This document shows, piece after piece, positions 26,422-28,859 of a stretch of 64,000 nt of DNA. Origin of the DNA: Escherichia coli. Lineage in GTDB: Bacteria > Pseudomonadota > Gammaproteobacteria > Enterobacterales > Enterobacteriaceae. The stretch is from assembly GCF_016026235.1 (NCBI RefSeq), contig NZ_CP065613.1, one strand, 5' to 3'. The position numbers were made by a program, and so were the translations under genes. The notes under the pieces were generated by a model. The model was not told where the DNA came from. It did no database searches and saw nothing but the letters and a program-made list of their open reading frames with translations. Positions within the stretch are counted from its first letter, which is position 1, and each line of letters opens with the position of its first letter.

Positions 26422-26460
26422 ATAACCTAGGTTATAGCGGTGGTCAATAACTTAATTTAT
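26422..26460. promoter_or_regulatory. OL operator region (repressor-binding palindromes)
   Basis: Perfect 14-bp palindrome ATAACCTAGGTTAT (26422-26435) and imperfect ATAACTTAATTTAT (26447-26460); same half-site family as OR. Confidence 0.45.
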
Positions 26461-26620
26461 GGATTCTGATAAATAAGTTATAAGTGATGGATAATAAAGG
26501 TATTTTATTTTTGTAAATGTTGCGGATTGGTCGGTATTGGAAGGGGGGCGCTGTATTGCTGGCGTGTTGGTTCGTGGTTTACCGCATTTGCGGCTGTTAA
26601 ATATGGGGGACGATCGCGAG

Positions 26621-26648
26621 GCAAAGAAAACCCGGCGCGGAAGCCGGG
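26621..26648 (-). terminator. Rho-independent terminator ending the cI operon (tImm-like)
   Basis: Stem CCCGGC/GCCGGG with GCGGAA loop, followed on the minus strand by TTTTCTTTGC. Confidence 0.5.
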
Positions 26649-26666
26649 TTTGAGATTTAGTTATTT

Positions 26667-26801
26667 TCAGCAGCTCGGATAAGAGCGGAAGTGCTGACGA
26701 ACATGTTCGAGCTCACCGAAACGTATGCGGCAGTAACTGCGCACATAAACCGGCTTGTCGTGTTCGTAGATGAAGTCATCGCGATTAACATCGTGAGCCA
26801 T
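26667..26801 (-). CDS. Small Cys-containing protein (44 aa)
   Basis: ATG with CAGGAG 7 nt upstream; MAHDVNRDDFIYEHDKPVYVRSYCRIRFGELEHVRQHFRSYPSC; ends just before the terminator; below the ORF-track size cutoff. Confidence 0.35.
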   Translation of the reverse strand: MAHDVNRDDFIYEHDKPVYVRSYCRIRFGELEHVRQHFRSYPSC

Positions 26802-26974
26802 AGCTTTTCTCCTGTTTTTGTATACAGCCTGTTTACCCGAACAGGTTGTAGTTTGTTGGGAGAACCGCTATCCTTGGCTTGCGGTTGCCAAGGGTGTAGC
26901 GGTAGGTAATCCTCCATACACTTCGGAAATACTGGATATATTTCCGACCCAAAAAGCCCCGTTCCCTCGGGGCT

Positions 26975-27508
26975 TTATTCTTTTGTTCCGCCATCAATCA
27001 TCGCAAAAGATTCCACAATCAGACTGATACGCTTGGCTTCATCTTTTGTCAGGTCGCGAGGCAGGTTGCCAATGGTGACGATAAGATCTCCGCGCAATGG
27101 AATCGGCAGTTCAAATGTTTTTACACCAACCTGTACGTCAGCTACCGCCTTCTTCTTAGGTGCCATCTTTTTACGCTCCTTTTTTTTATTTACATCACCA
27201 ACTGACACATTAATCTCACCATTCTGGTAGGAGATAAATTTATCAATAGCACTTTGCATTCGGCTTTTGTATGCCTGCAAAGATGATTCAGAAGGTTTGC
27301 TTTCTGCTGAGTCTGCGTACGAACTTGCTAAGTTGGCAACGCTATAATCACGGATATCGGCATCGGTGAAATCCGACCCAAGAACAGTAAGAAGGCGCAG
27401 GGAAGAGTCACGGAGATTGCGGGCTGTAGCATCATTGACGATACCAAGCTCAGGAAGCATCTGTAAGAAGTCCTGAAATGCTTTGATGGTGTAGCTTTTG
27501 GTTTGCAT
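26975..27508 (-). CDS. Hypothetical protein (177 aa) in the lambda rexB position
   Basis: Co-oriented with cI; acidic N-terminal half, Lys-rich linker (KKKERKKMAPKKK); no family recognised. Confidence 0.5.
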   Translation of the reverse strand: MQTKSYTIKAFQDFLQMLPELGIVNDATARNLRDSSLRLLTVLGSDFTDADIRDYSVANLASSYADSAESKPSESSLQAYKSRMQSAIDKFISYQNGEINVSVGDVNKKKERKKMAPKKKAVADVQVGVKTFELPIPLRGDLIVTIGNLPRDLTKDEAKRISLIVESFAMIDGGTKE

Positions 27509-27697
27509 AAAAAAGCCTCATACAGTTGATGAGACAATACTAATTTGATCGTCAAAACAAATCAAGACCCAAGAAACGATCGTTGATTCCTTTCTTTGTG
27601 ACAATACAGTCAAATCAAGTTTTACAAGGATTACTTTTCTTCGATTACATTAAAGGCCGCACTTCTGCGACCATCCATCACCAAAATGTCTCTTCAC

Positions 27698-28039
27698 TCA
27701 TCCGAAGAAGCAGCAATCCGGGTCAGCACGCACAAGCTCAAGCGCATCAGTCAGCGAAAGTTCAGTACTGTACTGATGCCATTTCATATCCTTCCGCATC
27801 CAATAGATTTTCCATCTATCCAGAGAACGTATGTACTTGATTCTTGCTGATGGCAGGATGTTTGTTTCACCTGGGTTGCCCTGCCACACGGGGCGCTGTT
27901 CGCCGATATCTATCGTTTGGTCATTGATGCTATAAACAATATCCAGTTCATTGCGGATATGTTCAGGCGGCCTTATGCTTTCAATGAATTGGTGAACTTC
28001 TTTTTTGACCGCTTGATATTCAAGGTCAGTGAACGCCAT
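27698..28039 (-). CDS. DUF3024-like protein (113 aa) in the lambda rexA position
   Basis: Strong RBS GAGGAGGA; starts 37 bp after the cI stop; motifs RPPEHIR..ELD...WKIYWMRKDMKWHQY...CCFFG resemble DUF3024 as recalled. Confidence 0.5.
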   Translation of the reverse strand: MAFTDLEYQAVKKEVHQFIESIRPPEHIRNELDIVYSINDQTIDIGEQRPVWQGNPGETNILPSARIKYIRSLDRWKIYWMRKDMKWHQYSTELSLTDALELVRADPDCCFFG

Positions 28040-28076
28040 CTATCCTCCTCACCCAAACGTTTCTTCAGGCCACTGG

Positions 28077-28784
28077 TTACCAGCTATGCGATGACCAGAA
28101 TACTCTGCCAATAATCCTTACGGTTTTATGAAATTCATCTCTATCCATTACTTCATCCGGGTACTCTTCGCGATTTATTGATCTGATTATCACCGATGTA
28201 GGAGTGGCGATTAATGTTTTTACTCGCAACAAATCAGACTGGCAAATAGCGTAGGTTTTACCATCTCTGATGGTGGTATCTTGTGTGTTAACACCAACAA
28301 CATCGCCATCGTGAAGAGTTGGTTCCATGCTTTGACCTGTTACCCTTACCAGCTTGGCAGAACTTTCAGTTACCCCCATCTTTTTCAGATAGTACTTTCT
28401 GAAAACCAAAGAGAACTCTGATGATTCTTCTATCTCGCAGCTACCGCTTCCAGCCGAAAGCGAAACGTTAAGAAGAGGCAATGCGACAAACTCGTCATCG
28501 TTTTTTTTAATGTCTTCCCATACCACAGCTTTTAAAGATGACTCACGGATATTGGATGGTTCTTCATGTGTACCATCCCTCATTTCACCAATACCAGAAC
28601 TAAGCCATTCAGGGCGTACTTTTAAAGCATTAGCTAACTCAACCATCTTGCGAGATCCGTTTGTTTTACCGGATGACATCTTCTGTATGGCTGGCTGAGA
28701 TATTCCAACCATGTCCGCAAGCTGTGATTGCGACACCCCTGCCGATCTCATGGCTGCATTTAGTCTTTCTGCGAATGTTTTCAT
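28077..28784 (-). CDS. cI: cI-type prophage repressor (HTH plus LexA-like S24 peptidase domain)
   Basis: N-terminal HTH (SQSQLADMVGISQPAIQKM), C-terminal autocleavage-type domain; start 28784 chosen so the operator lies upstream; divergent from cro. Confidence 0.85.
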   Translation of the reverse strand: MKTFAERLNAAMRSAGVSQSQLADMVGISQPAIQKMSSGKTNGSRKMVELANALKVRPEWLSSGIGEMRDGTHEEPSNIRESSLKAVVWEDIKKNDDEFVALPLLNVSLSAGSGSCEIEESSEFSLVFRKYYLKKMGVTESSAKLVRVTGQSMEPTLHDGDVVGVNTQDTTIRDGKTYAICQSDLLRVKTLIATPTSVIIRSINREEYPDEVMDRDEFHKTVRIIGRVFWSSHSW

Positions 28785-28796
28785 ATCCACAAATCT

Positions 28797-28859
28797 ATAA
28801 CTACGGTTATCCAAAGTAAAATAATAAAGGTTATTGCTATCTTTTATAACTTGGGTTAT
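28797..28859. promoter_or_regulatory. OR operator / PRM-PR region
   Basis: 14-bp palindromes ATAACTACGGTTAT (28797-28810) and ATAACTTGGGTTAT (28846-28859) between divergent cI and cro. Confidence 0.5.

Follow-up and report, generated by a model that had tools for sequence, protein, structure and literature searches.

Which protein reads a 14-bp dyad that recurs in both control regions of a lambdoid immunity region? The question is raised by a 64,000-nucleotide stretch of Escherichia coli DNA (contig NZ_CP065613.1 of assembly GCF_016026235.1), referred to here as the window, in which five copies of the motif ATAAC-N4-GTTAT, exact or with one mismatch, are found at the left operator (OL) and the right operator (OR) of a prophage. 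We consider it about 90% probable that these five sites are the operators of the prophage's own cI repressor and Cro protein, bound as dimers, and that together they would make up an ordinary genetic switch.

Probable operator sites at OL and OR

The window was scanned for the exact motif and compared with 100 dinucleotide shuffles. Three exact matches were found where 0.04 would be expected, and none of the 100 shuffles gave three. With one mismatch allowed there were 11 matches, compared with 1.5 expected from the shuffles. Five of these are clustered, two at OL (26422 and 26447) and three at OR (28797, 28821 and 28846), while the other six all lie within long open reading frames (ORFs). The contrast in density is therefore between five sites in the roughly 100 bp of OL and OR combined and about 0.1 match per kb elsewhere; a similar density in non-regulatory DNA was not found.

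The original prediction had placed three 14-mers at 26422, 28797 and 28846, and these coordinates are correct, the three being the only exact matches in the 64 kb. It had also described them as perfect palindromes, which holds for OL1 but for neither of the exact OR sites: OR3 and OR1 are symmetric in their 5-bp arms only, with centres (TACG and TTGG) that are not self-complementary. The one imperfect OL site that it mentioned is the single-mismatch site at 26447-26460. All of its listed sites stand, but the set was incomplete at OR, where a third site, at 28821-28834, had been overlooked. Measured from centre to centre, OL1 and OL2 are 25 bp apart, OR3 and OR2 24 bp, and OR2 and OR1 25 bp.

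We also built a position weight matrix (PWM) of the operator from related loci alone, with the window excluded from training, and scored it across the 64 kb. All five sites of the window ranked inside the top six, and OL1 had the highest score. The intruder in the top six was ATAACAATATTTAT at 63063-63076, inside an ORF of 1157 aa. This match is probably a chance hit in coding DNA, and it is the sole off-target candidate worth attention.

Conservation in related loci

The comparison set comprised five annotated loci, together with 80 viral contigs on which a relative of cI is encoded. In 78 of these loci, termed related, the cI protein was at least 76% identical to that of the window; in the remaining seven, termed diverged, it was at most 73% identical. 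A search for the motif in related prophages had been proposed as a check, and its outcome was favourable, with three OR sites and two OL sites in the 78 related loci, nearly invariant arms and variable centres. Relative to the cI start, the OR sites of all 78 lie at about -74, -49 and -25, the OR3 offset being fixed within 3 bp. The OL sites are found at the distal end of the region, with OL2 at 25 bp from OL1 in nearly all of the loci. As the cargo genes in between differ, cI and OL are separated by 1.2 to 2.5 kb. In the 476 kb of related loci there are 271 exact sites, every one of them in an OL or OR cluster; beyond these there is a single exact OL1, whose companion OL2 has diverged too far to be counted.

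Within the sites, the variation is confined largely to the centres. For 23 distinct OR sequences, entropy per column averaged 0.08 bit in the arms, 0.66 bit in the 4-bp centres and 0.47 bit in the spacers, and the base counts of the PWM show the same contrast of arms and centres. For example, the centre of OL1 reads CTAG, CCAG, TTAG or CTAA in relatives. In most relatives the OR3 centre is the most G+C-rich, those of OR2 and OL2 are A+T-rich, and OR2 is the perfect site ATAACAAAGGTTAT.

Covariation with the recognition helices

The seven diverged loci have no ATAAC sites. They carry other dyads of the same 5-N4-5 form instead, and within each locus OR and OL have the alternative motif in common. 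Helix 3 of the helix-turn-helix (HTH) varies in step with the motif in both proteins. In the window and its close relatives, helix 3 is SQPAIQKM in cI and TQPAVHKW in Cro. One diverged locus (L078) has SQAAIQKI in cI and SQQAVYKW in Cro with the motif ACAAC-N4-GTTGT, while five others (L079, L080, L082, L084 and L085) have AQSS(I/V)N(R/K)L and AQSTICDW with ATCGC-N4-GCGAT, and the last (L081) has AQPSVWKL and KQPSVWAW with ATAGC-N4-GCTAT. Reduced to their leading residues, the cI/Cro pairs QPA/QPA, QAA/QQA, QSS/QST and QPS/QPS go with ATAAC, ACAAC, ATCGC and ATAGC, respectively. The strongest case for cI and Cro, rather than another factor, as the readers of the sites is this change of the motif with helix 3 of both proteins. 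Together with their location and conservation, it supports the claim of the original prediction that the sites define the repressor specificity of this prophage, with binding as the predicted basis.

Helix 3 has an invariant first Gln, which aligns with Gln28 of the 434 repressor, and position 1 of the operator is A in all four motifs. In the published structures of 434 complexes, Gln28 contacts the adenine at position 1 (A1); by analogy, the invariant Gln and the invariant A would fit the same contact. A broader and more tentative proposal, to which we give rather less than even odds, is that this cI/Cro family constitutes a natural specificity-swap series on one scaffold and with one geometry (5-N4-5), in which helix-3 residues 2-3 (PA, AA, SS and PS) map to operator positions 2-4 (TAA, CAA, TCG and TAG), with cI and Cro changing in parallel. 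If true, this would amount to a compact recognition code for 434-like HTH proteins and would predict the immunity groups of E. coli and Shiga toxin (Stx) prophages from sequence alone.

The position of the sites in control regions could also be explained if they were bound by some other protein, either a host factor or another product of the prophage. Nucleoid proteins can target AT-rich palindromes, binding by cI and Cro is itself deduced, and the sequence TTATCCAAA at 28807-28815, which runs from the right arm of OR3 into the flank, agrees with a DnaA box (TTATCCACA) at 8 of 9 positions. Such a binder would, however, have to follow the cI and Cro recognition helices through four specificity classes in which host genus and flanking genes are similar, and the loci with the common motif differ in their cargo genes. 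The DnaA-like flank of OR3 is not conserved in diverged relatives. We rejected a DnaA box at this position: these relatives have TTATCAAAA instead, so the likeness is probably coincidental. Overall, recognition by a protein other than cI and Cro seems very unlikely.

Predicted promoters and operation of the switch

Promoter-like hexamers are found at conserved positions across the sites (Table 1); they are weak consensus matches and are predicted only. The leftward promoter PL, which would drive transcription of nutL and N, and the rightward promoter PR have the same layout, namely a -35 hexamer, 6 bp, and an operator whose last TAT begins the -10. The promoter-proximal operator thus occupies the spacer, and the second operator touches the -35. 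At the predicted promoter for repressor maintenance (PRM), the cI ATG comes 7 nt after the -10, and the cI mRNA may therefore have little or no leader. Both PRM hexamers hardly vary when the 23 distinct OR sequences are aligned. Promoter-like sequence is retained at the PR and PL positions in diverged relatives (e.g. TGGACA-17-TATCTT and TAGACA-17-TATAAT), the PR position reading TTGCTC/TATTTT, TGGACA/TATCTT or TAGACA/TATAAT. An alternative -10 for PR, TATAAG (28867-28872), was rejected, as its -35 is poor and it is missing from diverged relatives; in every group, a good -35 lies 17 bp from the TAT(N)3 hexamer that is fused to OR1. An extra GGTTAT half-site is present 4 bp past OR1 (GGTTATCCTTGGTTAT, 28855-28869). 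Close relatives and a group of 84% identity retain it, but loci of the L057 or L077 types do not.

A duplication could yield near-identical layouts of the kind seen at PL and PR, and there are six near-matches elsewhere in the window. The sites might accordingly be seen as chance AT-rich palindromes, or as a by-product of the shared ancestry of PL and PR, without any role in protein binding. This explanation is already strongly disfavoured by the excess of exact sites, three against 0.04, and by the promoter positions of OR3 and OR2, which are not equivalent to those of OL1 and OL2. In addition, the arms are conserved while centres and spacers drift, and the motif covaries with the recognition helices. 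We regard it as extremely improbable.

If the sites are the operators of cI and Cro, as we favour, the switch would operate along familiar lines. Helix 3 of each monomer would read one 5-bp arm, and the central 4 bp would probably be uncontacted, tuning affinity as in phage 434. In the lysogen, cI at OL1 and OL2 would block PL, and cI at OR1 and OR2 would block PR. From OR2, which adjoins the PRM -35, cI would probably stimulate PRM as well, and at high concentrations it would also occupy OR3, inside the PRM spacer, and shut PRM off. Upon SOS induction, RecA-stimulated self-cleavage of cI would lift repression, and Cro could then take the same sites during lytic growth.

A possible third OL site and points of doubt

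To the right of OL2 there are two half-sites, GTTAT (26477-26481) and ATAAT (26491-26495; ATAAC in relatives), followed by a conserved T-rich run. The operators could thus be real and yet be joined by a non-canonical third OL site built from these lone half-sites, giving a lambda-like set of three plus three sites able to support looping between OL and OR. Both half-sites are kept in diverged relatives though the surrounding DNA changes, and, apart from a 1-bp defect, ATAATAAAGGTATT (26491-26504) looks like OR2. By PWM, however, no 14-bp window over the half-sites in 26465-26510 scores as a site, and a third OL site was rejected on this basis. For example, the window GATAAATAAGTTAT (26468) scored -1.3, at rank 243, and the 14-mer at 26491-26504 fell outside the top 25, hence below 6.9. 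The centre of the latter would also be 46 bp from OL2, compared with 24-25 bp elsewhere, and phage 933W functions with two OL sites and without OL3 (PMC5977221). A third site of this kind is in our view unlikely, and the half-sites in 26465-26510 may represent an OL3 that has decayed or is non-canonical, or else a PL upstream element.

Several points count against reading the five sites as the operators of an ordinary switch. Two full OL sites were found, compared with three in lambda, and OR2 in the lineage of the window has an arm mismatch. The six one-mismatch matches in coding DNA exceed what the shuffles predict (1.5 in total), and the match at 63063 is as high as OR2 by PWM. Most of the related loci are close relatives, such that the conservation counts are not independent events. 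The promoters are predictions at the level of consensus, with weak -10 hexamers (4/6). Finally, we infer from sequence the binding of cI and Cro itself, as well as promoter use, the order of affinities, cooperativity and the activation of PRM.

Genes and setting of the immunity region

The sites are located between the divergent cI and cro genes and upstream of N, and thus flank the immunity genes as had been proposed. The gene order, N, OL, cargo, cI, OR, cro and cII, is that of a standard lambdoid immunity region (Table 1).

Table 1. Coordinates of probable operators, predicted promoters, genes and a hairpin in the immunity region of the prophage
Feature	Position in window	Strand	Description
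N antiterminator	25787-26170	-	First gene of PL operon; Pfam N_peptide, E 1e-15
PL (predicted)	26419-26447	-	-35 TTGACC (26447-26442), 17-bp spacer, -10 TATCTT (26424-26419); consensus scan
OL1 operator	26422-26435		ATAACCTAGGTTAT; exact match; perfect 14-bp palindrome; fills predicted PL spacer, 3-bp overlap with PL -10
OL2 operator	26447-26460		ATAACTTAATTTAT; one arm mismatch; 1-bp overlap with predicted PL -35
Hairpin with U-run, likely terminator	26628-26651	-	Fold -15.8 kcal/mol, z = -3.4
Cargo ORF, 44 aa	26667-26801	-	PHROG of unknown function
Cargo ORF, 177 aa	26975-27508	-	PHROG of unknown function
Cargo ORF, DUF3024	27698-28039	-	PADLOC candidate defence protein PDC-S43, E 7e-42
cI repressor	28077-28784	-	235 aa; Pfam HTH_3 and Peptidase_S24; phrog_4 transcriptional repressor
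PRM (predicted)	28792-28820	-	-35 TTTACT (28820-28815), 17-bp spacer with OR3, -10 TAGATT (28797-28792); read from sequence
OR3 operator	28797-28810		ATAACTACGGTTAT; exact match; within predicted PRM spacer; 13 bp upstream of cI ATG
OR2 operator	28821-28834		ATAATAAAGGTTAT; one mismatch; adjoins predicted PRM -35; 1-bp overlap with predicted PR -35
PR (predicted)	28834-28862	+	-35 TTGCTA (28834-28839), 17-bp spacer, -10 TATCCT (28857-28862); read from sequence
OR1 operator	28846-28859		ATAACTTGGGTTAT; exact match; in predicted PR spacer, 3-bp overlap with PR -10
cro	28896-29120	+	74 aa; P22-Cro/YdaS-type HTH; Pfam YdaS_toxin and P22_Cro; phrog_35
cII	29259-29558	+	Right of cro

The intergenic region between cI and cro is 111 bp. 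The cI start, an ATG at 28784, agrees with the RefSeq annotation of 708 bp. The protein has a 434-repressor-like N-terminal HTH and a C-terminal self-cleaving S24 peptidase domain, and the elements of self-cleavage are present in its sequence: the Ala-Gly site in LSAGSG, the Ser in GQSMEP and the Lys in RVKTL. An identical cI protein is found on 280 contigs. Cro matches the Cro structure 3bd1 in PDB (E 2e-5).

The cargo block between cI and OL consists of three minus-strand ORFs and spans 26667-28039. The hairpin at 26628-26651, which is followed by a U-run, likely ends the operon of cI and the cargo genes just before OL. In related prophages that share this cI and these operators the cargo differs, including DUF1828 with DUF6978 and an SDH Clp-fold serine proteinase, and the slot between cI and OL looks like a variable site for defence genes or morons. 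A short hairpin with the loop GACAA also occurs twice in nearly identical form, once downstream of PL on the minus strand (26336-26350, GCGCTGACAAAGCGC) and once downstream of cro on the plus strand (29159-29173, TCGCTGACAAAGCGA). Their position and shape would fit the boxB elements of nutL and nutR, on which the N protein would act. An Rfam scan of 25500-29700 gave no match, including at these hairpins.

To the right of cII, a gene for an O-like replication initiator (29721-30068, plus strand) stops at about residue 111 of a family of 223 aa (phrog_4617), and the gene for an insertion sequence (IS) transposase (30063-31259, minus strand, 398 aa, phrog_2199) is inserted at its end. Because the O-like gene is interrupted in this way, the prophage is probably replication-defective while still immune.

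Over the whole region the closest phage is SH2026Stx1, at 95%, and E. coli O39:NM F8704-2 carries the region at 99.8%. Some part of the region is matched by 490 of 5426 complete E. coli genomes.

Novelty and significance

A full-text search of the literature for the exact site sequences returned unrelated matches only, none in a phage context, and a search for ATAAC/GTTAT together with operator, repressor and phage found none. The cluster names of cI and Cro in the source databases are generic, with no studied phage named. In a survey of the cI clades of Stx phages, operators were not defined for this cI type (PMC8951638). Since no phage paper with these sequences was found and the protein names are generic, we take the locus to represent an uncharacterised specificity of immunity, of a kind that is very well known. 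It is a new specificity within the textbook biology of lambda and 434, that is, a catalogue entry and not a new mechanism. Some Stx1-converting phages belong to the prophage type whose immunity group the motif would define, and knowing the operators allows the prediction of homo-immune prophages and the design of reporter or induction experiments.

Comparison with known systems

The Stx2 phage 933W has five natural sites, three at OR and two at OL (PMC3317979, PMC5977221), each of 15 bp around a central base pair (PMC3317979). The arrangement of three OR and two OL sites is the same here, and the flanks belong to the same phage type, with N and cII about 97% identical to those of 933W-like Stx phages. 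In contrast, cI, cro and the operators differ, and the alignment with 933W covers 35% of the region, in the flanks only.

The resemblance to lambda is one of organization. The order of genes and operators is shared, as are the three OR sites, which here have a centre spacing of 24-25 bp, and the S24 self-cleavage domain of cI. If the predicted promoters are correct, OR1 and OR2 lie over PR, OR2 adjoins the PRM -35, and OR3 lies over PRM, as in lambda; the PRM -10 is TAGATT in both, and the cI ATG is a few nt from the expected transcription start. The likely terminator at 26628-26651 is at the position of tIMM, and the cargo is at that of rexAB. Lambda operators are 17 bp, with a centre spacing of 23-24 bp at OR. 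The original prediction had contrasted the sites with these 17-bp operators, and rightly so, as the sites here are 14 bp and of unrelated sequence. Other differences from lambda are the number of OL sites, two instead of three, and the cargo, DUF3024 and other genes in place of rexAB.

The closest analogue is phage 434, in which repressor and Cro use 14-bp operators of the form ACAA-N6-TTGT. The N-terminal domain of the cI protein matches the DNA-binding domain of the 434 repressor over residues 6-68 (phmmer E 1e-7 to 3e-7). Both systems have 14-bp operators in which the outer arms are conserved and the central 4 bp vary, an A as the first operator base opposite a conserved Gln at the beginning of helix 3, first helix-3 residues that cI and Cro have in common, and a tripartite OR between divergent cI and cro genes. 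They differ in the arms, ATAAC/GTTAT here and ACAA(G/T) in 434, and in helix 3 of the repressor, QPAIQKM here and QQSIEQL in 434. Unlike 434, the Cro protein here is of the P22-Cro/YdaS type, and two full OL sites were found. With arms of ATAAC instead of ACAA(G/T), the phage should be heteroimmune to 434. The locus would work like the 434 type without having the 434 specificity itself, imm434.

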